Below are positions 25,201 through 50,482 of a stretch of 54,799 nt of DNA, in pieces; position 1 is the stretch's first letter, and every line of letters starts with the position of its first letter. A program made the position numbers and the translations under genes. The notes beneath the pieces were generated by a model. That model saw only the letters and a program-made list of their open reading frames with translations, was not told where the DNA came from and ran no database searches. The stretch covers positions 1 through 54,799 of IMG/VR virus record IMGVR_UViG_3300038566_000115, one strand, 5' to 3'. The DNA comes from a virus (lineage: Duplodnaviria > Caudoviricetes).

Positions 25201-26743
25201 CTTGTATCCCACCAACAAATGCACCTAGTGTACCTTGCTTAAGCGCTTTAACTACGGTACCCCAGTCTGCCTCTATGCTACCGCGTTCTGGAGCACCGGC
25301 ATATTTATCTGTGATAGCGGCTTCGGTTCCTTCTTGTAGAAATTCTTGACCGCTCTCTGCGAGAGCGGCTGTTCCCGCTGCAGCTTTACGTGTACCGGCA
25401 AGTCGAGTACCGGTGAATAACTTACCTGTAATCTTATCAATCCCTGTTAGCTTGCCGGCTGCTAATGTTGACATAGCTGCCATCGCTACGCCCCGTGAAC
25501 TAAGTAGCTCAGCTAGCTGCGTACGTGCTGTATCGTTAGCGTATGCCTCTGACCTACCCTCTGCTATCAGTGCGTCGCGTATACGAGTGTACGCTTCTAA
25601 GGATTCTAAGTTATCTTGCTCCGCTGTATTGATAGCATCATAGACTTCTTTGCGTACCCCTGCGCTCACACTAAGGGCCTCTTCTGCTAACACTGTCTTA
25701 CCAACTATTTTAGCTCTCTGGTCATTAAGATACTTCAATGCAGACTTAGCGTCCTTAGCTACGCCTGCTTCGACCATTTCCTTCGCTAACTTTCCTGCAG
25801 TCTTAGTAGATATTTTACTTGCTACGCCAGAAATACCACCTGCTAATACCATTTCGGTTGCAGATGACATTACGATATCGGCTACTGCCACAGGATTAGT
25901 TACAATTGCGCCGATAGTACTTAGTACTCCATCTGCTGAATCTAGTTCAGACTGTAGGTTTTGCTTTGACTCTGTTACATACTTAGGCTCATAAGACTGT
26001 GCCCATTGGCCGGAAGTATACTCACCAAAATCTTTAGCGGCCTTCACTGCTTCAAGTCCCCGCCATGCTTTAGATGAACGGCGCAAGTATGCAGCCATAT
26101 CGTGTAGCGCAGAAGTATCTTTATCTTTTGCTTTGATACTTGCGGCCCTTACAGCAGTAGCGATAGAAGGGGATGTGCCTGAGTCGGGTTCATCAGAAGC
26201 CCACTGGCGTACAGCGCGGTATATGTCAGAAGCTAATGCTAGCGGTGTGCCTGTCGACTGTAGTATTGCTTTCTTTACGCTTGGGTCGGCATCAGAAAAT
26301 TCTCCGGCCGCTTCCGCTACCAATGCTAGGATGTCCGTTGCAGTCGCAGGTAAATCTGCAGCGCCTGATATGGCGTGGCCTATACCTTGCCCACCGAAAG
26401 ACTTGTACCATTCTGCCTCTTGTTCTGGTCCCTCTCCTACTGGCGGTGGGGCAGGCGCATCGAACTCAATCGCCTCACCATCCATAGAATCGTAGCCAGC
26501 TTGCGGGTCTTGTTGCGATGCACCTCTACCAACCGCTATGCCCATACGTTGTGGTGTTGGGTCAACATGGTCGAACCCCAACGCACGTTTTACCTCTGCC
26601 CTTGCAAACTTATCATGTTGAGCGTTTAGGTCTTCCCTGTTTCTATAGGGTGCGGTTGGTATAGCAGTGGGTTTACCTCTAGCTAGACGCTCTTTCTCCT
26701 CGTCACTAAGTGTACGCACATCAACATTGTTTTGGTTTTGCAT
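19232..26743 (-). CDS. Giant internal virion (ejection) protein, polyvalent-like, with zincin motif
   Basis: 2503 aa, last gene of the structural arm, Ala/Gly-rich helical N-terminus, HELGH plus downstream E, hydrophobic C-terminal segments. Confidence 0.75.
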   Translation of the reverse strand: MQNQNNVDVRTLSDEEKERLARGKPTAIPTAPYRNREDLNAQHDKFARAEVKRALGFDHVDPTPQRMGIAVGRGASQQDPQAGYDSMDGEAIEFDAPAPPPVGEGPEQEAEWYKSFGGQGIGHAISGAADLPATATDILALVAEAAGEFSDADPSVKKAILQSTGTPLALASDIYRAVRQWASDEPDSGTSPSIATAVRAASIKAKDKDTSALHDMAAYLRRSSKAWRGLEAVKAAKDFGEYTSGQWAQSYEPKYVTESKQNLQSELDSADGVLSTIGAIVTNPVAVADIVMSSATEMVLAGGISGVASKISTKTAGKLAKEMVEAGVAKDAKSALKYLNDQRAKIVGKTVLAEEALSVSAGVRKEVYDAINTAEQDNLESLEAYTRIRDALIAEGRSEAYANDTARTQLAELLSSRGVAMAAMSTLAAGKLTGIDKITGKLFTGTRLAGTRKAAAGTAALAESGQEFLQEGTEAAITDKYAGAPERGSIEADWGTVVKALKQGTLGAFVGGIQGGSLAAVLTPNTQKQIAKGADKQRIENSRPPTPSSPSAPPKVAATLDSVSETIGRILEIDKKLAELSPKVADDTASIEETALHDAMLDKQISLEESLAGVGEVDGENNVKTDPIGFLEDSRAAVNAASKTKKVEKAEETKAPVTEVAKEEGPVKQESVKKAEPKPTQQKKKPAVKDTAAPVNNSTPQREFNLDGTGSNKTNKQKKEAIPATPTPTDEGGGDVNRQTALPLDNPNSFVERTKRKYDAVFLGQNKLDKDDLAELDSTLDFKHMYDKNAEGNKVQQRAKAFKVHTDKVKAALWTPLKGETAKLQNLISNVEKSTGRKGPLNKKLSRKLAEVNRLIDSGIEGKTPARRKMAAKAALKKLHELSESGVGHPAIADVLAHADKDSGKTKDEFTKYLRDAASIVDRANKDAKTKSFPAEFIGDILQTAVLAAPESVRTPDIDGLVAKAATHVSNALTGVQSASRNRNTAPKIIEQLADSIDALSESPVPPKPKKKKPAAKGESIKAKAKKKSTQETDETKPDAADEFLAKAEKEKTSVVSDVLSGGTNTDSGYSVITPQEATMIKNNLEVGVDIANQNSRVQGLRADKSSNASEFIAEFVGALPPKSKARETLEAMQVFLSSSDVRISEYVADRVVGSHLGKYLAHAGPLRKSLSTLREKYGYSDALDSDIIKIYNELKEDAAISGVGDGTVILNDDVSSDPMLVYSFIHELGHAVTVPALTNDPTLKAAMDEIYRDFTTEVNKSGAVSPEVSYATKNPLELATEFLVNQEVQNAMKAMPANETVSSLLKDHRAAHKSLYDQMVDAVLSILKRILPSSIKPKTFFDQMLEVSAASAAVSSDIATHGRPTIDTITQLRTLGTELGSDNKLVTPPRDALLKSLGMTEAQATKAADRMRELVRNSDKVSTATEQREAVEEKEYIEDAELELIALQNGDGGGGLGELYFNDIQDNPADGGAGAAGRSKLQDIANTTGKIYRRVLETSDGLVEKFSDSMVGVNGKELLRGMLDNARRRVRLGTKYIHDNFNKVRYVRDLLASKGITDVQRQSLTSLMLDASYQQIDPRIPLQVHTWLSDKQKKAKRPLYSRVRSEYNSLPPPLKEVFKTLTSYYKDANNKMHTALVKALMYRHGMTNPSTSLIGRLKDVKSDEDLDEILSTMPPHIHDRFYGKGGQPNAVFEGTAKMLLSTNKQYNKQKNGIYVPSYRDGTHGFSLHTAREHVVSTKEAAEKLKGKLLGTRGVQGGVPTVKIELEGDSYLVTESEKGFRVNPSSNENLREIAELNREGFPDGWKVTNKLIPRNIQKDSVGMLSTEEVLNVIKKLSGENTEGSPAIQEFYKMLPDSSMLTRHVKRQGIAGTNVDLVQGMAKYVESTGRYISALETAPEQAKLRADIEKVNEGKTPEEKDRNDSIVAELAGRIDRNDSSGALLQVLSGLGFTNTLMSPSHPIINLHQPWMLTVPYLSGKYHGGTSQSGINSAFSYVSRAHGRVMGPAIRKVLAERGGANALSGDEVVYDDMFRQIKANVGEGPLADDINSMLDKLVETGSIEHTFTNELHEMASSPVSSLNKKDTAVGAKILEGAGEGAHRVLSMGRVVNQISEMVNRSVTAIAAYEMARDSGQSHEVAVKEAQNAIDQTQINYDILNRPDWMVGNAALKVISAMKMYPLGLYSMISTQIYRGFMREGRSQEDKAKAMRTLAGVALVSQLFTGTSGALFIEPVRLAATILNSTLGLVGLGLDEAEDEILDRPERLVYDMVEQVAGPQVAEFITYGMYNAMLGIDFSSRAGMHRLLTNTSQEHGFEWWADTFGSSLIGPIVGSGYQNVKSYIRAIESGQGKVEATLKYAIPVKFIRDLTQAYERATEGLLSKSGRQLLPPSAKTAASKAFGFTPHEEAVYWADRMSDWAQQDVGKSARRSALASYVQASLRGRSLKDAKEEISEYNRTIAKARLGKRITIKDVTRAVKEARERERQSKYNPSGLRGGEEGIEGL

Positions 26744-28393: not shown

Positions 28394-30008
28394 AACGATT
28401 ACCTCCTAGTGGCACACCCTGTTTCGATGGAGGCGTAACAGGTGCTGCGTCAATCTCTTGTATCATAGCGTCACGTTCAGCATAACGATTCTTAGCCTTG
28501 TGTGCTTGGATAGCATCGCCCTTTTGCTCCAGTAATTTATCGAAGAAGTCGGTACCTTTGCGGCGCACTACTTCTGCGGGTATAACGTACTCCCCATCAC
28601 TTAAGCTCGCGGGTATTAAATCCTCTTTTGGTCCGCCCGGACCATCGACTTCGCCGCCATCATTGTACATACGTACATACCCACCATCCCTGTATTGGTA
28701 CATTTGGCTTGGTGCGGCATCAGTCAACATACCAGATGGTGGTTGTAGTGCCGGTAACGCTTGAGGCGTAGGTGCGGTTACGGGAGTATCTATTTCGGTA
28801 GGGTCGTCGGGCGCGTTAAGCATTTGGTCAAGGCTAACCATCTTACTAAATGCCTTAGACATGCTGCCGCCTCCAAACGAGGCGAGCGCCTTAGCGCGGT
28901 TATGGCGCTTATGGAACTCTTCGTTAGTTTCTACCGGACCGCCATCAGCATACTTCTTGGACATTTCCCTGACAGCGCCTTCGAGTCTTGCTACCTTAGC
29001 GTTCAGGTCAATCCCCATTTGCTTACCCTTGGGAGAGTTAACCATAGTACGCACGGCAGGGTTTTCATCTTCTGCCAGTGTACCCATGTGTTTGCCCATA
29101 GGTTGTCCATACCCGTCCTTGTATTCATACTCGTAGTTCTTACCTTCTTTAACTTGCTTCAAAGACTCCTTATCAGGGATAGCCTTAATATTCTTCTTGG
29201 TCTTCTTGCTCGACATCGTAGCCCATGCACCAAGACCAGTACCTATAATGTCACCCATCATTTGGTTTCTCGAATTCGACAGGTTGAATTGGTTTTGCCA
29301 TTGCGAGTTCTGTAAATTACCAGACTGGCCATAACCTGCAAGGGCTTGGTTCCCCCACTGCCCTGCGCCGTTAGCGATGTTGCTCTGTGTGCCGAGGGTG
29401 GAGTTCAAATTGCCCACCCCACTCGAACCGGCTTGTAACGCTAGGCCATAACTCTGTGCTGCTTGGGAAGGTAGACCACGACCGATGTTTATAGCATCTG
29501 CTCTTAGGGCACGGCCTTTATCACGTACGTTCTCGCGTCTAGTATTAGCGACAGATGCTGCACCTAATGATTCTGCGAGGCGGGATTGTTTATCAATGGC
29601 GGCACTACGAACTTGTGATGGGTCGATGCCCATACTAGCTAGACGCGCTTCTGCATTATTACGCTGGGCTTGGAACTGCGTGCGTACGTCAGCAACAGCT
29701 TTACCAGCTTCCGATTCCTGTCGCTCGATAGAATCGTATGAGGTAAAGTCCTCAATCAAATCATTCTCTATCGGCTGGAATATGTCTTGGTAGCGTTGCC
29801 TATCGTCCCTAGCCCATGCTTGGTTCTCGGCCATAGCATCCATCTGGACACCAAGTACCTGCTCAAGCACGTCCTGTTGTTGGCCCCATTGCTCACGAGC
29901 CCATGCTAATTGTTCCCGTTGCGTTTCTTGCGCTATACGAGCGACCGCTTCGCTTGATTCAGCTAAGCCGCTCATATCTGGTGGAGGTGGTGGTTCACTG
30001 CAACACAT
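28383..30008 (-). CDS. Putative ejection/pilot protein with peptidase S74-like domain
   Basis: PPPPPD start and Q/A/G-rich coiled coil, then SSKKTKKNI...YEYEYK...HMGTLAED, then GPG..D.IPA.LSDGEYVIPA motif. Confidence 0.6.
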   Translation of the reverse strand: MCCSEPPPPPDMSGLAESSEAVARIAQETQREQLAWAREQWGQQQDVLEQVLGVQMDAMAENQAWARDDRQRYQDIFQPIENDLIEDFTSYDSIERQESEAGKAVADVRTQFQAQRNNAEARLASMGIDPSQVRSAAIDKQSRLAESLGAASVANTRRENVRDKGRALRADAINIGRGLPSQAAQSYGLALQAGSSGVGNLNSTLGTQSNIANGAGQWGNQALAGYGQSGNLQNSQWQNQFNLSNSRNQMMGDIIGTGLGAWATMSSKKTKKNIKAIPDKESLKQVKEGKNYEYEYKDGYGQPMGKHMGTLAEDENPAVRTMVNSPKGKQMGIDLNAKVARLEGAVREMSKKYADGGPVETNEEFHKRHNRAKALASFGGGSMSKAFSKMVSLDQMLNAPDDPTEIDTPVTAPTPQALPALQPPSGMLTDAAPSQMYQYRDGGYVRMYNDGGEVDGPGGPKEDLIPASLSDGEYVIPAEVVRRKGTDFFDKLLEQKGDAIQAHKAKNRYAERDAMIQEIDAAPVTPPSKQGVPLGGNRYGI

Positions 30009-30498
30009 CAGGTCGTACCTCTTTAAAATAATGGATAGCTATTGGCGCATATCCCTGTGACGTCATCAATTTCTCTAGTGACTTACCTCCAATGGGAGAC
30101 TTATCACTCATACCAATATAGGTTACGCCGAGTTTATATAATACACCCTCTGCATAACTGAGTAAATTCCTAGCAAGTTCGCCACCCCTATGTTCAGGGG
30201 TTATGTAGAACCAGTCTTCTTTGGCGATTCTTGTTCCGCGTACATGTACGTTAGGGCCAATGTAATACCCTAGATGTCCGACCATATTCTCTTCGTAGCG
30301 AATTGTAAATTCTAGTATAGCTCCTACTGATTCGTAATGTAGGACGCCCGTAGTATCTGGGTCAAAGGTATCGGGTAAGTATTTCGATTCAGTCTCAGCC
30401 CAATGGCTTTCCCATAACGACTCTACTTCATCTACATTTTCCGATATACGCTCTATCGCGTATGTGTAGTCCCCTATTGTTTCTGGTTTTAATTTCAT
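29995..30498 (-). CDS. GNAT-fold acetyltransferase-like protein
   Basis: FYITPEHRGGELARNLL acetyl-CoA-binding motif A. Confidence 0.75.
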   Translation of the reverse strand: MKLKPETIGDYTYAIERISENVDEVESLWESHWAETESKYLPDTFDPDTTGVLHYESVGAILEFTIRYEENMVGHLGYYIGPNVHVRGTRIAKEDWFYITPEHRGGELARNLLSYAEGVLYKLGVTYIGMSDKSPIGGKSLEKLMTSQGYAPIAIHYFKEVRPDVLQ

Positions 30499-31348: not shown

Positions 31349-32826
31349 TATACGTTTGTTTCAACCGTTGGTGCACAACTAAACGCAACGGTTGTGGTAC
31401 GTGTGACAGTGAATAAAGTTTTTGCTTGAGTAGCGCCACCATCACCCTCACAGAGATAAACACAATCCTTATCTGTACCTGCTGAACCGCCCACTGTATC
31501 GCCATCATAATCAAAGGCATCGATAATCTTGTTGTTACCATCTGCCGTACTTGCAAGCCCTTTGATTACTGAAGTATCAGATGCTTGAACTTCGACAGCA
31601 CCAGCAGTATTGAACGCAGCAGCAAAGTAACAGTGATACCAAGCATTGGCGTCGGCTTTTGCTATTGACCCGACAGTAGCTTCGATAGATACAGAGAAAG
31701 GTCTAGTTTTAGTACCACCTACATCGTCTGTGAATACAACTCGCTGTTCATCAGATACAGGGACATTTTCAATAAACAAACCCTGCCCTGAAAATGGTGC
31801 ATCAGTAACTATCTGTCCTGCGCCGTTATAGGAATACCATGTACCAACCCGCTTACCGTTAGTGACATTAGTGATATGGTCATTAATATCATCATCAGTT
31901 TGCGCAAGCGCATCTAAAAACGCAACGCATTCATCTAATGAACCAGATGCAGCATTGTTAAGAACCCATGTAAAATTACCATCGGCCTCGTTGAAGCCCG
32001 TTTCAACTTGTGGTGTATCAAGTTCCTCAAGTCCCATACTTGTCCAAGGCGCAATTTGCGCACCGCCATAAACATCAGCTAGTGTGTAGTTACCCGTTGT
32101 TAGGTGAGGTGTTTCTGATACCGCGAAACCCGCAAAATATTCACCAAGTTCTGTGATACCCAAATCAGTAGTTGATTCTTTACGGTCATAGTTTTGTCCA
32201 AAAGTTCTTACCGATACAGCCATATAAGTTCTACTGTCAAAATCTCCTGCACTTGCATCACTTGGCGTATTACCTGTAGAACCGAAAACTTGGATTAATT
32301 CATCAAAATTACCTGCCTTAGCAAAATCTACAGGGGCCCCACCTACGGACAGTTGTAAGTAAGGTTGGGAGGTAGGGAGTATTGAACCAAGACCTCTTGC
32401 ACCCATAGATATTCTATCTGTACCACCGTCAGTTGCTAACTGTTTTACTCCTGAACCACGGATAATATCAATGTCTGCTTGTGTAGAAAATTTACGGGAG
32501 TTAACCAAGTTGAATGAACCAGCGAATTTGAAATTGGCATTTGTCCAACGCTCATAAGGACGTAGTGATTCATCAGAAGCACGTTCCCTATTTTCAAAAG
32601 CATATAATGCTTCCATACGAATACCATCTTGTTGCGATAACGGATTGGGGTCAGACGCGCCACCACCAACACTCGTTAAATCTAAGGTCGGAAGTTCTTC
32701 CACAGGAATTATTTCAAGCAGTCCGTTAGTCTTATCGAAGTAGATATTCCCGTCAGGCGTACCTGCTCTACCTTGTGTACTCTGAACCAATGTAGTCGCT
32801 TGATTCGTTAAGTCTATAATAGCCAT
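31348..32826 (-). CDS. Putative beta-rich structural protein (492 aa)
   Basis: T/G/D/S-rich ORF ending VETNV, similar to the ETNE ends of neighbouring adhesins. Confidence 0.65.
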   Translation of the reverse strand: MAIIDLTNQATTLVQSTQGRAGTPDGNIYFDKTNGLLEIIPVEELPTLDLTSVGGGASDPNPLSQQDGIRMEALYAFENRERASDESLRPYERWTNANFKFAGSFNLVNSRKFSTQADIDIIRGSGVKQLATDGGTDRISMGARGLGSILPTSQPYLQLSVGGAPVDFAKAGNFDELIQVFGSTGNTPSDASAGDFDSRTYMAVSVRTFGQNYDRKESTTDLGITELGEYFAGFAVSETPHLTTGNYTLADVYGGAQIAPWTSMGLEELDTPQVETGFNEADGNFTWVLNNAASGSLDECVAFLDALAQTDDDINDHITNVTNGKRVGTWYSYNGAGQIVTDAPFSGQGLFIENVPVSDEQRVVFTDDVGGTKTRPFSVSIEATVGSIAKADANAWYHCYFAAAFNTAGAVEVQASDTSVIKGLASTADGNNKIIDAFDYDGDTVGGSAGTDKDCVYLCEGDGGATQAKTLFTVTRTTTVAFSCAPTVETNV

Positions 32827-32830
32827 TATT

Positions 32831-33118
32831 TTAGCCCTCTTTGACTAGTTTAAGTTCAGGAGTTTTGAAGGGACTCTCTGGGTCAAACCCTTTTAAATTC
32901 TGCTCTTTGGCAAAATCAATACCTGCATTAAATGCTTTCAATTCATATTTTCTTGCGAACTTAATTATCTGGAACATAAGTTCATCAGACACACCGGAAG
33001 GGAATTCTGCAAGAACTGCATCAGTAATGTTTTCCCTAACTAGCCAGTCTTGCTTAACACCATTATTTGTTAATTGGAACATATTTGCATTCTGTAATTG
33101 AATATAGTCTTTACTCAT
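32831..33118 (-). CDS. Hypothetical protein
   Basis: Coupled ORF in the late operon. Confidence 0.65.
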   Translation of the reverse strand: MSKDYIQLQNANMFQLTNNGVKQDWLVRENITDAVLAEFPSGVSDELMFQIIKFARKYELKAFNAGIDFAKEQNLKGFDPESPFKTPELKLVKEG

Positions 33119-35846
33119 TAGTTTCTACCTGTGGTTGTAATGTAATTGATTGGTTAGTTGACTGTAAATTAAATGGTAAGTTAATCTCAACGTAACCCGT
33201 AGCTATATGCTGAATCCTTATACCGTTTATAGTTCCATTATGCGAGTAAGAAAAGAATGTACCTGCATTAGATTCCACTCCATCTAATTCAGTATTATAC
33301 TGGCCATCGCCATCTATCTCATCATCGTAAATTCTAACTTCTGCACCATCAATAACCCCATTTATAATAAGTGTAGCAGGTCTAAGCACCGTAACTGTAC
33401 CACCATACGGTGTGGCCACCTTACCGTCATCTATAATAGTGCCTGTAGCAGCAGTAAGTGTAAGCACATCAGAGCCTATGTATCTGATTTGTATGGAAAC
33501 TCTATCATTAAAAGTAACATTATCCATAGTTAGAGAAAAATCACCATCGGTACATGATTGTACTTCTATAGAACAAGGCCAGTCAGGGAAGTTTGAGTTT
33601 GCTATAGCGTCAACAGCGAGTTGCATATTAGCTTGGGTGTCGCTAGAAATAGTCACCTCTGCGGGAGCGCCTTTCTCAAACAGTGTTTGCCTTATATCCA
33701 AAGTATTATCTAGACTTGTATTTGACCAACTATACCAATGAGCATACCAACAAGAGGTTGGTGATACAAACTCAATGACTGTTGCATCAACACCCCTGTC
33801 GTCCCCAACTTTTAAATCTTCTGTGCCTTCATGCCCCCAAGATATATTACCTGAATGCGTTGGGAAAACTGATACTTCCCAAGGATTTCCATTAGTTCGA
33901 GATTGGAAAACCCCATCAAGATGAACACCACATATACCACCTTTTTGCGTAGAAGAATTGAATTCACCTAGTATATGGTATGGCCTATTTGGAGTAAGAG
34001 CTATATCAAAAAATGCTTGGGCGTAGTCCCCATTGGCATCAGCAAACTGAAAAATCAAGTTGTTACCAAACCCTCCAAGTAACGCAAAGTTATTAACCTG
34101 AGCACCTTCCTCCCATATAACATAGAGGTTTTGTGATATGTTACTTAGCATTATCCAACCACCAACATATCTCCTATTGGCTGTAATTGTCACATTCATA
34201 TCAGATTGGTCTGCGGGACTGATATACTCAGTCTGACTAGATATCAAGAAAGAGTGGGTATCGCCTTTTACTAACTGCGTAGTAGCATCAAAACCGGGCG
34301 AACCCCCAATAGAATTGTTAGCTGTGGCAGACTGAACTTCATCTATGTAAGTATTTTGGAAAGTCCAATAGTGGTCAGGGGCTAAAGTCATGTTCAAAAC
34401 TGCTTCACGGTACGTTTCAGGGGGAGTTCCAACAACTACTGAAATACTGGCAACTGAACCTGAGTCCGTAGTTACAAATAAAAAACAATCAGTATCAGCA
34501 AGTGAGCCGGAAGTAACATCAAATTGAATGACTGTATCAGACCAAGAGTCTATATTAGTTTGATTTACTATAACCCCTGAATAATCGGAGTTCTGTACTA
34601 ATTCCACTTTACCTGTTCCTTGTAAAGCCTCGAACCCACCAGAAGAATTTACCACAACATTTAACTGCGAGTTACCAATTGCATTATCGCCATCTACGTC
34701 TGAGATTGATAGCTTCAATGTGCCATCGATACCTGTTAGTTCTAAGACACCCCAATCTGCTCTAACATTGTTTCCCGAACGGTGGACCCAGTATTCAATT
34801 GTTCCAGAAGCAGCAGTTATCCTTGCAGATAGTCGTCCACGTGCATGAGCCGTACCCACACCAGAAGTATCTGAGAACCATTCTAAAGAAAGCTCGTCCA
34901 GAAGCGCACTTGTCGATGAACCAGAGGGCCATGTAGCATTAGTTGCATAAGTTCCATTACCTTCACTAATGTTAGTATTACTGTCGCGGTTTATTACAAA
35001 GGCAGGGTGAGATAAAACATGACAATACGCAACACCGTCATTTCTAGCATTAGAATCTTGTTGCAGTATAAATTGTGCCTGTGTTGTAGAATCGGGAACC
35101 CACACACCGAGGTTATCAGATATCCCAGTTTCAGAAGTATCACCTTCTAACGAACTTTCTATTATTATCGCATTACCCCAACTACCAACATCAAAGGCTA
35201 AACCATTTAGTCCAGTTGAGTCGGCGTTTAGAGTTATGGTTTCTGCCGTGGAATTATGACTAGCTGACCTTCCATGGCCTACTGAAAAATTAGCACCAAC
35301 AAACTCAACTACGGTTATATAAACAACCAAGGTTCCAGTAGTTGCGCCCCTCTCCACCTGTATTGTGTCAGTAGCATCTATGTATACACTGACAGTTGAA
35401 GAATCATAATCATCCACGCTAGTTGCGTCTGTTTCAGAACCTGTCCAAAAGGGAATACATTTATTTCTATCTGATATACCGGTAACAACTTGAGAGGCAG
35501 CAGCACTACCCGAAGATAGAGTAATACTGTATCGACCCCTCACAATGAATTCATCTGGACCGCTAACTGCCCCAGTGTATCGCCAAACTTCACCAATTAT
35601 CTTTTGGCTTGTCGTAGTATTCTGTCTAAATGAAATCTGATTTGTTGCGGATAGAAATGCAGCACCAGAACAAATATTTGGTGCTGAGTTACCAGTGCTA
35701 GCCGTAGGTCCAGATTGCTTATCTATCGATGTAGTTCGTCTAACAAATGCGTTGTTAAGTGAACCAACGTCATTAGAAAGTACATGCGTCTGCGTGTTAG
35801 TCGCAGTCACATCAACATCAAAACTTTCTACCTTAATAACACCCAT
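33111..35846 (-). CDS. Putative adhesin/tail fibre with LamG (ConA)-like domain (911 aa)
   Basis: PDHYWTF...GGW...PYHI...HLDGV lectin-like pattern. C-terminal half paralogous to the next gene. Confidence 0.6.
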   Translation of the reverse strand: MGVIKVESFDVDVTATNTQTHVLSNDVGSLNNAFVRRTTSIDKQSGPTASTGNSAPNICSGAAFLSATNQISFRQNTTTSQKIIGEVWRYTGAVSGPDEFIVRGRYSITLSSGSAAASQVVTGISDRNKCIPFWTGSETDATSVDDYDSSTVSVYIDATDTIQVERGATTGTLVVYITVVEFVGANFSVGHGRSASHNSTAETITLNADSTGLNGLAFDVGSWGNAIIIESSLEGDTSETGISDNLGVWVPDSTTQAQFILQQDSNARNDGVAYCHVLSHPAFVINRDSNTNISEGNGTYATNATWPSGSSTSALLDELSLEWFSDTSGVGTAHARGRLSARITAASGTIEYWVHRSGNNVRADWGVLELTGIDGTLKLSISDVDGDNAIGNSQLNVVVNSSGGFEALQGTGKVELVQNSDYSGVIVNQTNIDSWSDTVIQFDVTSGSLADTDCFLFVTTDSGSVASISVVVGTPPETYREAVLNMTLAPDHYWTFQNTYIDEVQSATANNSIGGSPGFDATTQLVKGDTHSFLISSQTEYISPADQSDMNVTITANRRYVGGWIMLSNISQNLYVIWEEGAQVNNFALLGGFGNNLIFQFADANGDYAQAFFDIALTPNRPYHILGEFNSSTQKGGICGVHLDGVFQSRTNGNPWEVSVFPTHSGNISWGHEGTEDLKVGDDRGVDATVIEFVSPTSCWYAHWYSWSNTSLDNTLDIRQTLFEKGAPAEVTISSDTQANMQLAVDAIANSNFPDWPCSIEVQSCTDGDFSLTMDNVTFNDRVSIQIRYIGSDVLTLTAATGTIIDDGKVATPYGGTVTVLRPATLIINGVIDGAEVRIYDDEIDGDGQYNTELDGVESNAGTFFSYSHNGTINGIRIQHIATGYVEINLPFNLQSTNQSITLQPQVETNE

Positions 35847-37081
35847 TATTCATTAGTCTCAATTTCAGGGAACAGTGTCTCTGTTGAGTTAGAACTAGAT
35901 AGACTAACTTTTTTTATAACTTCTTTATAACCGGAGGCAAGCATTTGTATCACAATGTCATTGGTGGACCCATCATGATTGAATGTAAAAGATGTTCCAA
36001 CATTAGATTCGACGCCACTGAGTTCTGTATCGTATTGGTTGTTGGAATCAATTTCATCATCATAGATTCGAACCTCTGCGCCATTTATAATTCCGTTTAT
36101 TGTTAAAGTAGCAGGGTTGACAAAGTTAATCGTTCCTCCTGCTGTAGTTGAGCCAATCGAAGCATTAGAACCGTTTGAATTAGTCCAAGTTAACGTACCT
36201 GTTCCATTGTATTGTACATGTATGCTAGCTAGTGGACTAAATGTAATGTTATCGGCAGTCAGACTAATAGAACCGGAAACATCAACTAATATACAAAGTG
36301 GAGAGTCTGGTCTAACAGTGGACGATATTGCATCTAATTCAAGTTGACTTGTTATTGTAACATCAGGAATAGCACCTTTCTCAAATAATTCTTCGCGGAT
36401 TTGAGTGTCTGTGAGTTGAGCATTTGCTCCATCAAAGAAAGCCCATTGCGCATAATTACCATTAATGGGCGCAAGTAATATAACTGGTGTACCGCCAACG
36501 CCCACAACACCTGCTGGATCGCCAAACTCGCCCGCGCTTCTAGCGGTTAAAGTGGTGGCATCGGGCTGTCTATTAATTGGTTCAGCATTGAATTGTTTGA
36601 CACCATCCACATAGCCACGCAACTCATTACCGAAACCATTACCTTCAAACACCATAGTTAGATGGTAAGCGCGGTCAACTGCTAAAGTAATATCGCTAAA
36701 AATTTGTAGTGTGAATGCAGGGTCGTTAACCTCGAACATTACAGTATTGCCCCAACTAAGAATTAATCTAAACGATTGTATTTCATTACCGTCCCCATAA
36801 ATGCTTTTGGGCGGACTTTGAAGCCCAGTAGCTGAGAACCATCCACACACTGCTTTTCTACTTTGTGCAGCGTTATTAATTAGAGGGGTTGTAGGTAGTG
36901 TAATCCTATCGTTGACTCCATTTGTAGTCCAAGAACCTACCGAGTCTAAACACAAGTTTGGACCCGTGAATACTCCACCCGCATTAGTCCCATTGAGCGA
37001 ACCTATAGAATCATTCGCATCTGTAGCTAGCTCATATCTGGCTACTGGGTTGAGAGCATCGATGTCTTGACTGTAAGTCAT
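35846..37081 (-). CDS. Putative adhesin with LamG-like domain (411 aa)
   Basis: LNPVARYEL...AVCGWF...YHLTMVF...YVDGV. Confidence 0.65.
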   Translation of the reverse strand: MTYSQDIDALNPVARYELATDANDSIGSLNGTNAGGVFTGPNLCLDSVGSWTTNGVNDRITLPTTPLINNAAQSRKAVCGWFSATGLQSPPKSIYGDGNEIQSFRLILSWGNTVMFEVNDPAFTLQIFSDITLAVDRAYHLTMVFEGNGFGNELRGYVDGVKQFNAEPINRQPDATTLTARSAGEFGDPAGVVGVGGTPVILLAPINGNYAQWAFFDGANAQLTDTQIREELFEKGAIPDVTITSQLELDAISSTVRPDSPLCILVDVSGSISLTADNITFSPLASIHVQYNGTGTLTWTNSNGSNASIGSTTAGGTINFVNPATLTINGIINGAEVRIYDDEIDSNNQYDTELSGVESNVGTSFTFNHDGSTNDIVIQMLASGYKEVIKKVSLSSSNSTETLFPEIETNE

Positions 37082-37086
37082 TAAAC

Positions 37087-37593
37087 TTAGAACTCATATC
37101 CAACACTGATGAAATCCATTCCACCATTATTTGAGGATGACCCACCAGTGCTGAAATGCTTATAGTTGATTAAAAAGTTATCAATCCTATAGCCTACGCC
37201 TAGAACATAGGGCGTATTGCTATTCCAAGACGGTGTTTGGTTATGCCAGTAGCTCATTCCAAATAGCATTTCAAAATCTTTATACTTAACCAAACGTCCT
37301 AAATAGATGGCTTGATTAGCACTAGTTAATTCGCCACGCTTACATGGATTGCCTTCTTTACAGTCTAGTCTTAGCTGTAGCATGATTCCGACTTCATACT
37401 TATCATTGAATACTTCCTCAAATGATAAGTTTTCTGAATCATAATACTCGCCACCGACAAAGGTTGCTCCTGCTGAAAGATTGAACCTTGTAGCGCCTTT
37501 TGACTCTTTAGATAAAACAAAGAGGAATAGAAATATAAACACAATTATTGCTATTGTAGTGCCATTTTTCCACGGACTTCTGAATTTACCCAT
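37087..37593 (-). CDS. pagL: PagL-like lipid A 3-O-deacylase (outer-membrane beta-barrel)
   Basis: Signal peptide, amphipathic beta strands, C-terminal YKHFSTGGSSSNNGGMDFISVGYEF with H, S(+2), N(+10), D(+14) and terminal Phe. Confidence 0.7.
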   Translation of the reverse strand: MGKFRSPWKNGTTIAIIVFIFLFLFVLSKESKGATRFNLSAGATFVGGEYYDSENLSFEEVFNDKYEVGIMLQLRLDCKEGNPCKRGELTSANQAIYLGRLVKYKDFEMLFGMSYWHNQTPSWNSNTPYVLGVGYRIDNFLINYKHFSTGGSSSNNGGMDFISVGYEF

Positions 37594-37667
37594 TTTAACA
37601 ATCCCATATAGTTTTTGATTTTCGATTCTTCTTTTTAGCGTTATCTAAGGCCCGCTCATGCCAGTTC

Positions 37668-37889
37668 TTACTTTTCATGGATAGCAGTATCAGTTTTGTA
37701 AGTGCGTATCAACGAATTAAGCACTAACCCAAGCAACGCAAATGATTCAACAGACATGAAATTAGTTGTCACCCATGATTTAAACTCGGGAGACATAAGA
37801 ATGCCCATCATGAGCGTAGCGCCTACAGTATTAAACCAGTTAGCAGTAGACCTAAAGAACGCTTTAGTTTTAGCTAAGAAATCATCCAT
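37668..37889 (-). CDS. Holin-like two-TM protein
   Basis: RSTANWFN followed by two hydrophobic helices and IRTYKTDTAI..K; in the lysis cassette. Confidence 0.55.
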   Translation of the reverse strand: MDDFLAKTKAFFRSTANWFNTVGATLMMGILMSPEFKSWVTTNFMSVESFALLGLVLNSLIRTYKTDTAIHEK

Positions 37890-38268
37890 TGTTATAGTCC
37901 TCTATACATTGAGTTAAATAATTGATAATTAAGTTTCGGTCTTTAATTGCTTTCAACGCAAGCTGAGTATTAGCCGCTAGGTTCTTATAGTATTGCTCTT
38001 CAATCCCTATAATTTTTCTACCATCTTCTGCTGTGGCAACCACCCATATAATCTTCTCCCAATCAGGCTTAGTTTGCTGCGGTGGTTCTGGACAGACTAG
38101 GATTTCCCGCTTGTATTCTACTACCGGAACTTTAATTTGTTTCGGCTTTGAACTCGTCATACACCCTGCCAGTAGCGCGGTTAGCATAACGAACAATAAG
38201 ACTGGCTTTCTTGTCCATAAGTCTTTCAATACGTCCACACTCTTTGTCAAATACGGCGAGGGCATCAT
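37882..38268 (-). CDS. o-spanin (Rz1-like lipoprotein)
   Basis: Lipobox LLAGC and Pro-rich CPEPP; 5' end overlaps the i-spanin in another frame. Confidence 0.7.
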   Translation of the reverse strand: MMPSPYLTKSVDVLKDLWTRKPVLLFVMLTALLAGCMTSSKPKQIKVPVVEYKREILVCPEPPQQTKPDWEKIIWVVATAEDGRKIIGIEEQYYKNLAANTQLALKAIKDRNLIINYLTQCIEDYNNG

Positions 38269-38608
38269 CTTTCTCCTGCTTTACGGCAATCAATTTGCCT
38301 TCTAATTTCTTTCTGTTCAGTATGGCATTATCGAATTCTTCACGCTGCTTTTGAATTTCTTCTGTAGCTTGGGATAACTGGACCCCTAGATCCTCATTGG
38401 CTTTATAAGCTAACTGTAAATGTAATTCCTTCTCCGACAATTCAGCTTGCATGGACGAATACTTGTACGTTATGTATGTAGCTGTAACAGTCAGGGAAAT
38501 AAACAGCAAAACAATCATAGTAATTTTAGCTCTTTTAGACGTACTAAATGCGAAACCAAATACAGATTTTAAAACCGCTAATATAACATCAGGATTCATC
38601 ATACTCAC
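38132..38608 (-). CDS. i-spanin (Rz-like)
   Basis: N-terminal TM helix followed by a long coiled coil. Confidence 0.7.
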   Translation of the reverse strand: MSMMNPDVILAVLKSVFGFAFSTSKRAKITMIVLLFISLTVTATYITYKYSSMQAELSEKELHLQLAYKANEDLGVQLSQATEEIQKQREEFDNAILNRKKLEGKLIAVKQEKDDALAVFDKECGRIERLMDKKASLIVRYANRATGRVYDEFKAETN

Positions 38609-38846
38609 CTAGCTTTTGTTTTAGTAGTCTGACTTCAAGACGATGTCTTCGTATAGCAAGCGTTAAGAGTATGAGTGTTGATATAATGCCGACAATACTG
38701 GCTATCGTACCAACCTCCCAAGGTATGATATTGTTCGTGGTCGCCGCGCCTGCTGCAGTAGTCACTACACTACTAACTGCCGTTGCGGTCTTTGGGTTAC
38801 TAACAATATCCTCAGATATACGCTGCATAAGATACGCTCGCCACAT
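38589..38846 (-). CDS. Putative holin
   Basis: Small hydrophobic protein with basic C-terminus next to the endolysin (start may be internal M). Confidence 0.55.
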   Translation of the reverse strand: MWRAYLMQRISEDIVSNPKTATAVSSVVTTAAGAATTNNIIPWEVGTIASIVGIISTLILLTLAIRRHRLEVRLLKQKLGEYDES

Positions 38847-38864
38847 GTATGTAGTCCTTACTGC

Positions 38865-39254
38865 TCATTTTTTAAGTTGGAAATGCGGCATGTCTATGAA
38901 ACCTTTCCAGTCACCGCCCCATGTTATGTCGATATTGTGGATGTTTGCCGCTGCCTTTATTACGTCAGCTACCTGCTCTAAGTGATAAGGGTCCCACGAT
39001 GCTGCGCCATCTACATACGCATATACATCCACTGCGTTACCCGATTGGTGGTACGACTTGCGTTGGTACCCATCACACTTGGACTTACCCTCGTTAAATA
39101 GAGCGCGCTGTTCCTCTGCGGTACGAAGGCCCCCAGAACTAGGTATGCCAAAATCTATATCCGACATACTTATAGCCTCGTTAAATACTTTCTGTAGGTC
39201 GGGGTGGACCTTACTAAGTACTAGCTTGGAGCGCTTGGAAAATTCGTAATTCAT
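38865..39254 (-). CDS. Endolysin, M15 family L-Ala-D-Glu peptidase
   Basis: GLRTAEEQ, SYHQSGNAVD and WGGDW...DMPHFQL. Confidence 0.9.
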   Translation of the reverse strand: MNYEFSKRSKLVLSKVHPDLQKVFNEAISMSDIDFGIPSSGGLRTAEEQRALFNEGKSKCDGYQRKSYHQSGNAVDVYAYVDGAASWDPYHLEQVADVIKAAANIHNIDITWGGDWKGFIDMPHFQLKK

Positions 39255-39257
39255 AAA

Positions 39258-39857
39258 TCACCCGTATGTAAGTGAGGCCCTATCGGTCCATACGTTAGTA
39301 AATGCGTTACTACTGTCGGCGTACAAAGTCGTAGTATCTCCATCGGCCGCTATAGTTATCTGCTTTATCTGCCATGCTGAATCACTATCGCCGGAACCTA
39401 CTGCTGCCTTACCGGAATATATTAGCGTGTCGCCTACGAAATCTGTTCTCGTTGTATAGTCCACTTCATCATCCACCCACTCTGTATCATAATCTATATC
39501 GGTTGCTTTTTGTAGTACTTGTCCTGTAGTTCCCCCCGCAGGTACGCCTACACCGTCCTGTCCGTCCGCACCCGGACCTCCGGGTGGCCCTACTGTACCT
39601 GTGTCGGAGCTGGAGGACGTAGATACGACACCGGTAACAGGGTCTATAATACCTAATTCTACTAGGTCACGTACGGATATGAAGCTGTCCATGACATCCC
39701 CCCGCTGACGCGTCGCTATCTCAACAAGCTCCTTCATCGCGGCGATTGACTCCTCGACGGAGCCCTTATAAGGGTCCACTGGAGTTGGATAGATTGTGGC
39801 GTTTGACACCACATCCTCCCGCAGCTGTTTAATTCTTTGTGCTAAGACGTCAGACAT
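39258..39857 (-). CDS. Tail-associated protein with short collagen-like segment
   Basis: GPPGGPGADGQDG and GVPAGGTTGQVL.K...DYDTEW fibre motifs. Confidence 0.6.
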   Translation of the reverse strand: MSDVLAQRIKQLREDVVSNATIYPTPVDPYKGSVEESIAAMKELVEIATRQRGDVMDSFISVRDLVELGIIDPVTGVVSTSSSSDTGTVGPPGGPGADGQDGVGVPAGGTTGQVLQKATDIDYDTEWVDDEVDYTTRTDFVGDTLIYSGKAAVGSGDSDSAWQIKQITIAADGDTTTLYADSSNAFTNVWTDRASLTYG

Positions 39858-41691
39858 TGCGTAGTTCCCGCGCAGTACTTGCTGCCTTTATCGATTGTAT
39901 TGGGCGCTGTCCTTCTACTTCAAACATCCACCGTGTCGCACGGAATGAGCTTGGCAACCGGATTAGGTTTTCCGTAGTATTAACTGTACCCTCAAATTTG
40001 AGGTATTCAGTTCCCTCGATAATTACATATACTCGAAAGATAACATCGGGGGATACGCTCGTAGTATCTATATCAAATAACGGACTACCTGCCAAAGACA
40101 ATCGGTTATCCGGTAGTCCCGTGCCCGTGTCGATTGGAGCGGCATCCCCTGCGACAGCGGTGCCTCCAATCGTATTTAACGGCGAAGCTATACGTACGTT
40201 GTTGTATGTCTGTTCATCACTACTAACCACACCTAAGTCGCTATCAACACCTTCAAATGTAATCCTAGCTGCACCTAAATTTATCGGTGTTGGGGTGACG
40301 TACTCTTTGCTCCTCCATGTATAAGTTAACGGGGCTGCGGACTCGGCATCCCAGTTATACAGAGCGGTGCCGGTAAACAATAGTATCTCCCCTGTATGGG
40401 TATTAGTCTGTACACCGACTACAGGCAAGTCGTTAGATATTTCAATGAATGCCGACATTGGCTCATTAGGGTCAAATATAAACCCCTGCGTATCGCCAAA
40501 GAACGCGATGTACTGGTTGTGGTACGATGATGCACGGATATTATCTGGGTTGTATTCATCCTGCCACTCATACTTAGATAGCAACTGTTTGGTTACTATA
40601 GAGGGGTTCGGGCCATTTACAAGAACAAGTCCGTTTGATGAAGCATACAGTACGCCATAGATGGTAGTAGCTATAGACTGCCTAGACAAACAGGGCTCTA
40701 CCGAACTCGATGTCCGTAATGTAATTGAGGCAGGGTTCACCCCTACCCCAATAAATGGGGCGGCGTTTGTACAAGCGACTATGCTCTGTCCGAATACACC
40801 CATACCTACCACGTCATATTCTATGGCTTGTTGATAATTGTCCGGCCACGCATGAGGGCGGTATACCTCGGACATATAAATATTACGGCCGGACCACCCA
40901 ACTAAAAACCCATTCGGCATAACAACAGCCCCCTCCAAATCAGAGGGGGGTTCAGTCCACGTGGTGGACTCTAGTAATGGCCCTTGCGTGGCCTCATAAT
41001 CTGTAGATGTATCCGTATACGTGACTTGGTTGCCTACTGCCGGTATAGATAGCGTAGCTATACGGAAGTATGTAGCTGAGTTATACCCTGTCACACTTCG
41101 GTATATGTGGATACTGGTGATAGACCTGTCTGCCATTTCAGTTCTTGGGAATGAATCACTTCGTATCGTTACAATCCAGTCTCCACTAATCTCGCCCGAG
41201 GCTAATGTAGGTTCTGACGGGGCAGACTCTTCTCCGAACTCAGACACCAATGTATAAATGTAACTGCGGGATTCTATTAGCGTAGTATCGGGATTATCTG
41301 TAGTAGTCAGTGATGGTGGCTGTCGTGGTGAAGGTACACCTAAGTGTAACCACGGGTCTCCACTTATCAATCTAGCGGCGGTATTGTATTGCGGTACGCC
41401 CTCACCGAACTTATAGAACCTATCATAACTATCATTAAGTAGTGGTGATTGCAGTATATCCGCGTCTTTTGTAGTGGTCGTTTCTATATGCTGCGTACCG
41501 TCATTGAAACGTAATACGTGCGCTGCGGCTCCAGAGAGTCCACCAGCTATAGCGAGTGTACTTCGCAAGGCCCGTAACGTGCCAGAGAGTAGTCTAGCGT
41601 TAGTAGCTACAGAAGCATTGACTGCAGGTAGTAGCGCATCTGCTCTACGTGGGACCATGCCAGTGAATTGGTTTATGTTTATCGATGTCAC
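39850..41691 (-). CDS. Tail nozzle/stabilisation protein (P22 gp10/T7 gp12-like)
   Basis: 613 aa, F.GMVPR start, YIYTLVSEFGEESAPS, SEVYRPHAWP and YTWRSKEY; beta-propeller-like. Confidence 0.7.
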   Translation of the reverse strand: MTSININQFTGMVPRRADALLPAVNASVATNARLLSGTLRALRSTLAIAGGLSGAAAHVLRFNDGTQHIETTTTKDADILQSPLLNDSYDRFYKFGEGVPQYNTAARLISGDPWLHLGVPSPRQPPSLTTTDNPDTTLIESRSYIYTLVSEFGEESAPSEPTLASGEISGDWIVTIRSDSFPRTEMADRSITSIHIYRSVTGYNSATYFRIATLSIPAVGNQVTYTDTSTDYEATQGPLLESTTWTEPPSDLEGAVVMPNGFLVGWSGRNIYMSEVYRPHAWPDNYQQAIEYDVVGMGVFGQSIVACTNAAPFIGVGVNPASITLRTSSSVEPCLSRQSIATTIYGVLYASSNGLVLVNGPNPSIVTKQLLSKYEWQDEYNPDNIRASSYHNQYIAFFGDTQGFIFDPNEPMSAFIEISNDLPVVGVQTNTHTGEILLFTGTALYNWDAESAAPLTYTWRSKEYVTPTPINLGAARITFEGVDSDLGVVSSDEQTYNNVRIASPLNTIGGTAVAGDAAPIDTGTGLPDNRLSLAGSPLFDIDTTSVSPDVIFRVYVIIEGTEYLKFEGTVNTTENLIRLPSSFRATRWMFEVEGQRPIQSIKAASTARELRNV

Positions 41692-49504: not shown

Positions 49505-50482
49505 TTACTGCTTAACAATACCTACCGCAAGGCCAGTACCGTCAACAACTTTGTAACCATACACCTGTAGTCCTCGCATCATGTGCCCGAAGGTACGCTC
49601 TGCTCGGATGGTTTCGGTTTTAGTAACCTGCGACGCGAAGGTTAACCCATGTTGATGTCCTGCGAATACAGTCCACTCTAGGTTATCCCGTGGTAACAAG
49701 TTAGATACATAAACCGTAGTACGGTCAATCATACCAACACGTCCGTTACGCAAGATAGAGGTAGAGTCCCCTGCGATAGACGCGTCTTTCAACTCACCTG
49801 TTTTGATTCTGTTACAGAACCATGCAGGTAAGATAACGTAACGCCCAGTCTCTGGGATGTTCTGCTCGTCAAGCGCTTGGTTAAGGTCGACGATAAAGTC
49901 AACAGCGTTTCGGATACTGGTTGAACCATCGCCACCACCTGTCGCTAGGATTTGGGTAGCTGTAGTACCGGCACCTGCCGCTGCAACACCTAACTGCAAG
50001 CTACCTGAAATAGCGCCAGCGATATTACCTTGGTTTGATGCGTCAACATCAACAGCGATATTACCTAACACGTCAGTATCAATTTGAATCTTCATCTGCT
50101 CAGAAGCATCTTCTGCCCAGATATTCATCATATTGATATCGCTTTGTGTTTCCATAACATCATCAACAATCGCGTTCCAGTACTTACCTTTATCGATGTT
50201 CAGTGACACGATATTAGAAGTAGGACGCTGTACCGCTAGCTCTTGTCCAGCTTGGTAATCGTTGATAGTCAACGTAGGGCGAGTTCGGATATTAACTTGG
50301 TCGCCTTGGCTTTTAATCTCACCCTCATAATCAGTATTAGCCATTACGTTTAATACTGTGGTGTTGTAGAACTTCTCAATTAATTTAGAAGACCACAACG
50401 TAGGGATGAACGTGCCTGAATAGGCGGGAGACGGTGCGGCGGCACCATCATAATACTGCGACGCAGCAACTGTAAACGGCAT
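49505..50482 (-). CDS. Major capsid protein (HK97 fold, P22-coat-like)
   Basis: FIPTLWSSKL, NTDYEGEI..QGD.V.I, LDEQNIPETGRY and RGLQVYG; GAGG RBS; follows scaffold. Confidence 0.9.
   Translation of the reverse strand: MPFTVAASQYYDGAAAPSPAYSGTFIPTLWSSKLIEKFYNTTVLNVMANTDYEGEIKSQGDQVNIRTRPTLTINDYQAGQELAVQRPTSNIVSLNIDKGKYWNAIVDDVMETQSDINMMNIWAEDASEQMKIQIDTDVLGNIAVDVDASNQGNIAGAISGSLQLGVAAAGAGTTATQILATGGGDGSTSIRNAVDFIVDLNQALDEQNIPETGRYVILPAWFCNRIKTGELKDASIAGDSTSILRNGRVGMIDRTTVYVSNLLPRDNLEWTVFAGHQHGLTFASQVTKTETIRAERTFGHMMRGLQVYGYKVVDGTGLAVGIVKQ

Follow-up and report, generated by a model that had tools for sequence, protein, structure and literature searches.

A PagL-like gene in the lysis cassette of a phage belongs to a clade found on phage and prophage DNA

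Background

Lysis of Gram-negative hosts by phages is taught as the work of three components, holin, endolysin and spanin, and to our knowledge the taught scheme includes no lipid-directed enzyme. The bacterial enzyme closest to the protein described here is PagL, a lipid A 3-O-deacylase. According to the accessible part of a review (PMC4402001), it forms a barrel of eight strands, has a Ser-His-Glu triad, and contributes a conserved Asn to its oxyanion hole. Here we analyze a PagL-like gene in the viral record IMGVR_UViG_3300038566_000115 from IMG/VR, the whole 54,799 bases of which are referred to as the window. The gene follows the endolysin and spanin genes of the late region and encodes a phage-specific version of a known enzyme family, in a lysis-cassette setting for which no published description was found. 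The portions of the literature that were searched contained no description of a natural phage-encoded PagL.

Assignment to the PagL family

The gene and the two regions of its product that bear on its function are listed below.

37087..37593, minus strand: gene for a probable PagL-family outer-membrane beta-barrel esterase of 168 amino acids, a putative lipid A 3-O-deacylase (open reading frame, Pfam and profile searches, structure model)
37495..37593, minus strand: predicted cleavable signal peptide, residues 1-33 (sequence, alignment of relatives, model helix)
37114..37158, minus strand: predicted catalytic motif H146-x-S148-x7-N156-x3-D160 (codons, conservation, alignment to 2ERV)

The open reading frame (ORF) begins with ATG, and its product begins MGKFRSPWKNGTTIAIIVFIFLFLFVLSKESKG/ATRF... 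and ends ...YKHFSTGGSSSNNGGMDFISVGYEF, with the C-terminus VGYEF168; the slash marks the predicted signal-peptide cut. The N-terminus is basic (K3, R5, K9) and is followed by hydrophobic residues 13-27 and then by SKG/A. The cut was placed after SKG, where close relatives show a conserved AxA/ET, and the predicted models have a helix at residues 10-30 and a first strand from residue 33/34.

A word-index search returned eight relatives besides the window protein, at 45-58% identity. The nine sequences aligned together (alignment A1) share an invariant HFSTGG-S--NGG-D, the Cys pair C78/C84, and SYW...W-S-TP, and eight of them matched the Pfam PagL family (PF09411) at E<=1, the best with an E value of 1.8e-5. 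An exhaustive profile search with A1 over 1.84 billion representatives found 166 proteins at E<=0.001. When the best 70 of these 166 were compared to Pfam, 49 were above the PagL cut-off, eight were below it, and 13 had no PagL match at E<=0.01, one of the 13 being an unrelated protein of 783 amino acids. The search against the PagL hidden Markov model that had been proposed with the original prediction of a PagL-like lipid A deacylase therefore favored the family for most of these relatives, while the window protein taken alone fell below the cut-off (19.1 bits against 23, E 0.0015, profile positions 92-134).

A wider alignment of 71 sequences (A2) was made after P0009, P0026, P0035, P0037, P0047, P0048, P0054, and P0065 were dropped as fragments or sequences of odd length. 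In the whole PDB, the A2 profile had a sole match at E<=1, which was PagL (2erv_A, E 3.2e-6), and the alignment placed H146, S148, N156, and D160 on His126, Ser128, Asn136, and Glu140 of 2ERV, counted from chain positions. The wider alignment was needed for this result, as the nine-sequence profile found no PagL in the PDB and gave only chance matches at E>1. For an independent profile test, 11 chromosomal PagLs (A5) were drawn from the same bacterial family as the single genome found to hold a close copy of the gene. The five chromosomal PagLs from that family that were tested all scored on Pfam PagL, with 32-83 bits, and comparison of A1 to the 11 sequences with hhalign gave a probability of 95.4% (E 1.9e-8) over the C-terminal 64 columns. 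The Lom/Ail/OmpX and OmpW families had no Pfam match to the window protein at E<=1. Membership of the PagL family, as originally proposed, is thus supported by the single PDB match, the residue-for-residue correspondence of the motif, and the hhalign result, and the window protein is very probably a PagL-family outer-membrane serine esterase that acts, most likely, on lipid A.

The catalytic motif and its conservation

The motif reads H146-F-S148-T149-G-G-S-S-S-N-N156-G-G-M-D160, and its H-F-S-x7-N-x3-D pattern, the +2/+10/+14 spacing, and the terminal Phe are exactly as had been described from the sequence. The codons of H146, S148, and D160 are at 37156-37158, 37150-37152, and 37114-37116, respectively. 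Across A2, at 21-58% identity to the query, G112, H146, S148, and G158 are invariant, and E60, R100, G151, N156, D160, and F168 are at least 90% conserved. The motif is not a chance match, given that all of these 71 divergent relatives have H146 and S148 and that N156, D160, and F168 are kept at this level. The roles of the corresponding residues in PagL are described in the review cited above and reportedly in the structure paper of Rutten et al. from 2006.

In the window protein, Thr149 follows the predicted catalytic Ser in place of the Asn of the usual HxSN, a departure that the original prediction had correctly pointed out; this Asn is common in the motif and is not known to be catalytic. 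The residues at this position are S-T in the window's clade (S-C in P0013) and S-N in a distant phage clade and in chromosomal PagLs, and we take Thr149 to mark the subfamily rather than an active site that has been lost. The acid at +14 is Asp in 11 of the 11 chromosomal PagLs in A5 as well, which makes the Asp in place of Glu in the window protein ordinary. His and Ser are kept in all 23 of the phage-locus proteins. One of these, from locus L040 (8-511), has Val at the position of D160 (...NNGGLVLL...) with His and Ser retained; this copy could be inactive, the Val could come from an error in sequencing, or the acid could be dispensable.

Two other regions of the protein show unusual conservation. 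The Cys78/Cys84 pair (codons 37342-37362) falls within the 15-residue loop that joins strands 3 and 4, predicted to be extracellular loop 2, and is invariant in all nine close homologues and absent from the chromosomal PagL consensus. A disulfide may staple this surface loop, which would then be a peculiarity of this phage clade. The basic start of the signal peptide (codons 37564-37593) is conserved across the clade down to approximately 40% identity, with the forms SPWK, LPWKK, and VDWKK, in a comparison of the window with L002-L004, L021, and L039-L042. The n-regions of signal peptides normally drift, and the conservation of this one hints at an additional role in targeting, timing, or translation.

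Structure model

A first model, built from the nine-sequence alignment, had a predicted local distance difference test score (pLDDT) of 78, and in structure comparison PagL was tied with OmpW, OprF, and OmpA. A second model, built from the 71-sequence alignment, had a pLDDT of 94 and a predicted template modeling score (pTM) of 0.84, and consisted of the N-terminal helix (residues 10-30) and eight strands, the second of which is kinked. For this model VIA-align placed 2erv_A first, with Z 16.7 and a root-mean-square deviation (rmsd) of 1.4 Å over 118 residues, followed by OmpA (Z 14.6, rmsd 2.6 Å) and OprF (Z 14.1), and barrels of the Lom/Ail/OmpX/OmpW type scored Z 9.5-13.7. The structure prediction proposed with the original prediction thus gave the expected fold: an eight-stranded barrel is predicted, and PagL fits it better than OmpA, OmpW, or Ail. 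In the ESM Atlas, the nearest named clusters were PagL or lipid A 3-O-deacylase, and one cluster of 109 members was 96% viral.

H146 and S148 are at the end of strand 7 of the second model and D160 is at the start of strand 8. With the usual barrel topology, these residues would flank extracellular loop 4 and so would sit at the rim of the outer leaflet, as does the active site of PagL. The original prediction had named as its refutation an Ail/Lom/OmpW-type barrel without a clustered His-Ser-Asp. The modelled barrel is not of that type, with PagL the best fit, and the clustering of the triad is predicted from the positions of the strands and the close backbone fit to 2ERV.

These comparisons bear on the possibility that the protein is a non-enzymatic small barrel of the Lom, Ail, OmpX, or OmpW kind in which the motif is a relic. 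The eight-stranded barrels of OmpW, OmpA, Ail, and PagP do come near PagL in their Foldseek scores and in those of the VIA search with the first model. In the better model, though, PagL is 2 Z units above the rest at approximately half the rmsd, the A2 profile matches PagL only with those families absent from the Pfam matches at E<=1, and none of the 71 sequences, which go down to 21% identity, has lost His or Ser. This explanation is disfavored and very improbable.

A clade on phage and prophage DNA

The gene was sought by motif scans in viral, metagenomic, and cellular sequences. In IMG/VR it was found on six viral contigs with motifs from A1, on ten with A3, which is a sub-alignment of the group with HxSNAG...PN-GQD (the SNAG group), and on one further new contig with A4, another sub-alignment. 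A scan of metagenomes added six new short contigs. Among 185,579 species genomes scanned with the A1 motifs there was one copy (L021), in a metagenome-assembled genome (MAG) of Kangiella sp., near a contig end and three genes from an integrase. Marine Gammaproteobacteria of the Kangiella kind are a possible host range for the clade. Of 41 genomes in the family of the Kangiella MAG, 21 had only weakly matching chromosomal PagLs of this sort. The phage-type copy in the MAG (G001; L021/L023) matched the A2 profile with an E value of 7e-53, and the same genome has a separate, divergent chromosomal PagL-like gene (L024; E 1.5e-7, 32.5 bits on Pfam PagL).

A maximum-likelihood tree was made from 23 phage or prophage proteins and 11 chromosomal ones, with the duplicate L013 omitted. 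The window protein groups with L002, L003, L004, L021, and L039 (support 100/99), and this subclade is nested in a 14-row, all-phage clade characterized by HFSTGG (support 97/90). Nine canonical chromosomal PagLs are placed across a long branch (length 2.72, support 100/100). The two other chromosomal sequences, L024 and L025 (LRHTSNA...SNRGED), are on a branch of 3.64 inside the SNAG phage clade beside L017, with support of 89/88 and not starred; this placement could be due to long-branch attraction or to an old transfer from phage to host. All members of the window protein's clade that were seen in this analysis are thus carried on DNA of phages or prophages.

Ten protein clusters of the clade were found only on contigs of up to 73 kb and were annotated as hypothetical protein or not at all. 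PHROGs had no match for the window protein or for any of the 71 relatives. A tblastn search of 50,697 GenBank phage records, from which records near the window's genome were possibly excluded, gave no match with any of four queries (the window protein, P0034, P0018, and a chromosomal PagL). With neither a PHROG family nor a GenBank phage match, this PagL-like family is invisible to current phage annotation.

The distance between the clade and the canonical enzymes also bears on the question of substrate. A PagL-fold esterase acting on some other outer-membrane substrate, such as a phospholipid, a lysophospholipid, a lipoprotein acyl chain, or another ester of lipopolysaccharide (LPS), would function as an outer-membrane lipase carried by the phage and not as a 3-O-deacylase. 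Such an enzyme would be consistent with the long branch to the nine canonical chromosomal PagLs, with the Thr in place of the motif Asn, and with the new 15-residue loop 2 of the close clade and its invariant Cys78/Cys84. It would also be consistent with Pfam PagL scores of 17-45 bits for the clade, which come mostly from the C-terminal third, whereas four canonical chromosomal PagLs score 73-83 bits along the full length (the fifth, a divergent one, has 32.5). The catalytic and oxyanion residues are nevertheless all kept, and the core barrel lies on 2ERV at 1.4 Å. We know of no substrate other than lipid A for any member of the PagL family, and a different substrate appears quite unlikely.

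A multi-pass membrane protein of 122-126 amino acids (phrog_9646, function unknown) adjoins the PagL-like gene in L021 (5619-5987) and in L015 (1779-2159). The two copies are 46% identical to each other, and the PagLs beside them are from different clades. A holin or a partner of the PagL-like protein are possible identities. It had no match in the window.

Linkage to lysis genes

The neighbors of the PagL-like gene on both sides in the window are as follows.

38865..39254, minus strand: endolysin of the M15 peptidase type (Pfam Peptidase_M15_4, 45.3 bits, E 1.3e-11; phrog_465 endolysin, E 1.5e-50)
38589..38846, minus strand: holin candidate, a membrane protein of 85 amino acids with a transmembrane segment at 40-67 (phrog_13707, function unknown, E 7.3e-13)
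38132..38608, minus strand: inner-membrane spanin (i-spanin) with an N-terminal membrane anchor (transmembrane segment 27-48) and a coiled coil (likeness to proteins of L003 and L004)
37882..38268, minus strand, overlapping the i-spanin gene: outer-membrane spanin (o-spanin), a lipoprotein with the lipobox LLAGC at residue 33 (phrog_812 Rz-like spanin, E 8.2e-6)
37668..37889, minus strand: small protein of 73 amino acids, encoded between the spanin genes and the PagL-like gene, in which two stretches are weakly hydrophobic
33111..37081, minus strand: two tandem tail-fibre-like genes, of 411 amino acids (35846-37081) and 911 amino acids (33111-35846), with a shared C-terminal domain

The late block thus runs from an internal virion protein and a fibre-like protein of 199 amino acids through the endolysin, the 85-residue membrane protein, the i-spanin, the o-spanin, and the 73-residue protein to the PagL-like gene. 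This agrees with the original description of the gene as co-oriented after endolysin, holin, and spanins, with the 85-residue protein as the putative holin on account of its position only. The i-spanin is 40% identical to an L003 protein that matches phrog_739 (Rz-like spanin) and 36% identical over 80 amino acids to the i-spanin of L004 (BLAST 1e-14). The 73-residue protein, a possible second holin or antiholin, had no family match in Pfam or PHROGs. A protein of the same length also lies upstream of the PagL-like gene in L004; the two are not similar to each other, and this is therefore not a conserved partner. A simple scan of 32500-40200 for promoters and terminators found sites no commoner than in shuffled sequence, so the PagL-like gene is not marked as a separate transcription unit.

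In order to survey the linkage suggested in the original prediction, ORFs of the related loci were called by a simple script and scanned against PHROGs (47 of approximately 103 in L002-L007; 64 of 81 within 3.2 kb in L008-L019; 14 in L039-L045; and seven more from L004, L006, L007, and L016), with the immediate neighbors also compared to Pfam. A recognized lysis gene was found within two genes of the PagL-like gene in seven of 15 distinct loci of the HFSTGG clade, the window included, and in five of the six loci of the window's own subclade. In the SNAG clade no recognized lysis gene was nearby in any of ten loci, where the neighbors were exonuclease, head, terminase, primase, or fibre genes. 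The link to lysis is therefore strong in the window's own subclade and is not general to phage PagLs.

The arrangement of the lysis genes differs among the seven loci. In the window, the PagL-like gene is last, and in L003 it follows the Rz-like spanin that resembles the window i-spanin. In L004, it lies within the cassette: an M15_4 endolysin (4573-5004) and the transmembrane protein of 73 amino acids (5004-5225), here the holin candidate, are followed by PagL (5218-5745), the i-spanin (5748-6296), and the o-spanin (6088-6471), with the PagL frame abutting those on both sides and with an o-spanin that overlaps the i-spanin and has a lipobox. The gene follows a holin-like protein and a Phage_lysozyme in L007 and has an M23 peptidase two ORFs upstream in L002. 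In L039, a GTA_holin_3TM holin (75 bits) overlaps the start of PagL, and in L042 a lysozyme-like protein (phrog_1259, E 7e-22) overlaps its end. Overall, four types of hydrolase (M15_4, M23, Phage_lysozyme, and the lysozyme-like phrog_1259) were found beside genes of the HFSTGG clade in at least three gene orders.

The eight loci with no recognized lysis gene nearby are of several kinds. In the T4-like L005, L041, L044, and L045, the PagL-like gene comes after the tail tube gene; in L006 a tail fibre gene and genes for two small membrane proteins precede it; and in L019 it lies between terminase and portal. The remaining two are the prophage L021 and L040, where the gene is at the contig end. 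Small holins and spanins are poorly detected by profiles, which makes these negatives soft.

The tail genes in these neighborhoods point to a different purpose for the same enzyme, in which deacylated LPS would lower adsorption or DNA ejection by superinfecting phages or would spare progeny from inactivation by LPS debris and vesicles. In the window, the PagL-like gene is directly upstream of two tail-fibre-like genes of the receptor-binding type, and relatives often adjoin tail genes (L016, after a tail fibre gene, in addition to L006 and the four T4-like loci). The acylation state of lipid A affects entry of an RNA phage in Pseudomonas aeruginosa, according to the accessible part of one study, which concerned htrB mutants and not PagL (PMC10783630). 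On the other side, the strongest recurrent neighbors in the window's own subclade are lysis genes and not tail genes (five of six loci), and there is no indication here that LPS is the receptor of the window phage. Tailed phages usually read O-antigen, core, or proteins, and lipid A position 3 is hidden within the membrane. Protection of this kind is an unlikely main function for the gene.

The varied position of the gene among phages, together with the sole copy in the species genomes beside an integrase near a contig end, would also fit an accessory moron gene that aids the host during lysogeny or slow infection, through its surface or vesicles, with lysis adjacency reflecting an insertion-tolerant module boundary. 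A precedent is the unrelated lipid A deacylase LpxR, which is located on E. coli prophages next to the antiterminator Q, as described in the accessible part of PMC13192938. Three observations argue the other way. The window phage looks virulent, with its own DNA polymerase, helicase, and primase and no integrase in the 43 of 60 ORFs that were scanned from a record approximately 91% complete; the L004 cassette has the gene in its interior, with the holin candidate on one side, the spanins on the other, and frames abutting; and the lysis adjacency recurs with four types of hydrolase. We consider a moron gene improbable.

Other features of the window

The record is approximately 91% complete with a G+C content of 45.8%, and the DNA runs that are possibly the source of the phage are labelled marine metagenome, with no RNA run listed among the sequencing runs. 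The first 19 kb of the plus strand carry replication genes (DNA polymerase, helicase, primase, and exonuclease), and the minus-strand late block extends from portal/adaptor (51752-53791) and major head (49505-50482) to a giant protein of 2503 amino acids, as identified by PHROG scans. No integrase was matched among the 43 different ORFs scanned against PHROGs, out of 60 called, and no tRNAs were found.

The tail-fibre-like pair starts 5 bases after the PagL-like gene. The 911- and 411-residue proteins had no PHROG or Pfam match; they are closely alike in a C-terminal region of approximately 130 amino acids (...NGxIxGAEVRIYDDEID...) and in a central LFEKGA segment, and they look like paralogous receptor-binding or fibre proteins. 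The last 650 or so residues of the giant ORF (19232-26743, minus strand) match large phage proteins (phrog_37402, E 1.2e-38; phrog_10089, E 2.3e-20), one family of which is labelled DarB-like antirestriction, and the same kind of protein occurs near the PagL-like gene in L012 and L013. An acetyltransferase-like gene (29995-30498, minus strand; phrog_1249, E 1.4e-10) is located among virion and ejection-protein genes.

Proposed role in lysis

Based on its homology and position, we propose that the PagL-like gene would be transcribed together with the late lysis genes, and that its product would be exported by means of the cleavable signal peptide and inserted into the host outer membrane as an eight-stranded beta-barrel. 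The Ser148-His146-Asp160 triad and the oxyanion residue Asn156 would then be located at the outer-leaflet rim, where the enzyme, by analogy to its homologues, could hydrolyze the ester bond that holds a 3-hydroxyacyl chain at lipid A position 3. Loss of this chain would loosen the packing of LPS, such that the outer membrane would yield or vesiculate more readily under the action of holin, endolysin, and spanins. The benefit would be expected to be greatest in seawater rich in Mg and Ca.

Divalent cations stabilize LPS and block lysis in which spanins are absent, which counts in favor of a lysis-helper role. So does the increase in outer-membrane vesiculation upon PagL expression in Salmonella that is reported in the accessible part of PMC4958258. 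Taken as a whole, the explanation of a phage-adapted PagL-family member that deacylates lipid A and thereby aids lysis has, on sequence and model evidence, roughly an even chance of being correct, and the lysis-helper role specifically stands at even or slightly below. In broader terms, the phage probably edits or loosens the outer membrane of its host at the end of infection.

Several results weigh against the proposal. With regard to the enzyme, the window protein alone is under the Pfam cut-off for PagL, had no NCBIfam match at E<=10, and has Thr149 where HxSN has Asn. With regard to the fold, the first model ranked PagL sixth in the VIA search (Z 13.3, as compared with 14.0 for OmpW), Foldseek places PagP, OmpW, and PagL as near-ties even with the second model, and AlphaFold was trained on the PDB including 2ERV, so that the fit of the model is not fully independent of the sequence evidence. 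With regard to lysis, the edge of a lysis cassette is a classic site for accessory moron genes, such as lambda bor, and eight of the 15 HFSTGG loci have no recognized lysis gene nearby. The window also contains spanins, which means that there is no gap in the lysis pathway for the enzyme to fill.

PagL homologues of a clade seen here solely on DNA of phages or prophages, located in or next to lysis cassettes of varied composition, suggest that chemical editing of LPS in late infection is a further activity of some phages. A more general and more doubtful proposal is that marine and other environmental phages carry a dedicated PagL clade as a catalytic extra of Gram-negative lysis, produced together with holin, endolysin, and spanins, which would weaken the cation-stabilized LPS leaflet for the spanins or for escape of progeny. 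If true, this would be the first description of an enzyme that attacks the outer membrane during phage lysis, the lysis pathway would gain a step, and the completion of lysis in seawater rich in Mg and Ca could become easier to explain. Phage bursts would then release under-acylated LPS and vesicles. Furthermore, a small, self-inserting enzyme would become available with which the acylation of endotoxin could be lowered in engineered strains or in preparations of phage.

Comparison with known systems

Among known components of lysis, the spanins (Rz/Rz1) share both the cassette and the target of the PagL-like gene, as the outer membrane is the last barrier in lysis. Spanins act through membrane fusion and not through catalysis, whereas the PagL-like protein is a predicted enzyme that would accompany the spanins of the window rather than replace them. 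Other proteins resemble it in part. Lom is a small phage-borne outer-membrane barrel, the bor gene is directly after the lysis genes of lambda, and OmpLA (PldA) is a lipolytic enzyme of the outer membrane that permeabilizes the envelope for release, as in colicin release. Unlike the predicted enzyme of the window, Lom and Bor have no enzymatic function and do their work in lysogens, and PldA is host-encoded and hydrolyzes phospholipids; none of the Lom, Bor, and PldA families had a Pfam match to the window protein at E<=1.

LpxR, the lipid A 3'-O-deacylase of lambdoid prophages in enterohaemorrhagic and enteropathogenic E. coli, is likewise a phage-borne outer-membrane deacylase encoded in the late region near the antiterminator Q, according to the accessible parts of two papers (PMC13192938, PMC6863877). 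The latter source, in the part available, describes an unrelated fold, a Ca2+-dependent barrel of 12 strands and 319 amino acids, and LpxR acts at the 3' position. It is a lysogenic-conversion or immune-evasion factor of a pathogen and does not belong to the lysis cassette of a lytic phage.

The closest system remains PagL itself, known from P. aeruginosa (2ERV) and also from Salmonella and Bordetella, which shares with the window protein the eight-stranded barrel, approximately 135-150 mature residues, and His-x-Ser with Asn at +10 and an acid at +14. The window gene differs from it in being phage-encoded and inside a lysis cassette, and its product in having Asp for Glu, Thr for Asn, and an extra loop 2 with a Cys pair. 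Bacterial PagL is the cell's own regulated enzyme of envelope remodeling, whereas the gene in the window belongs to the phage.

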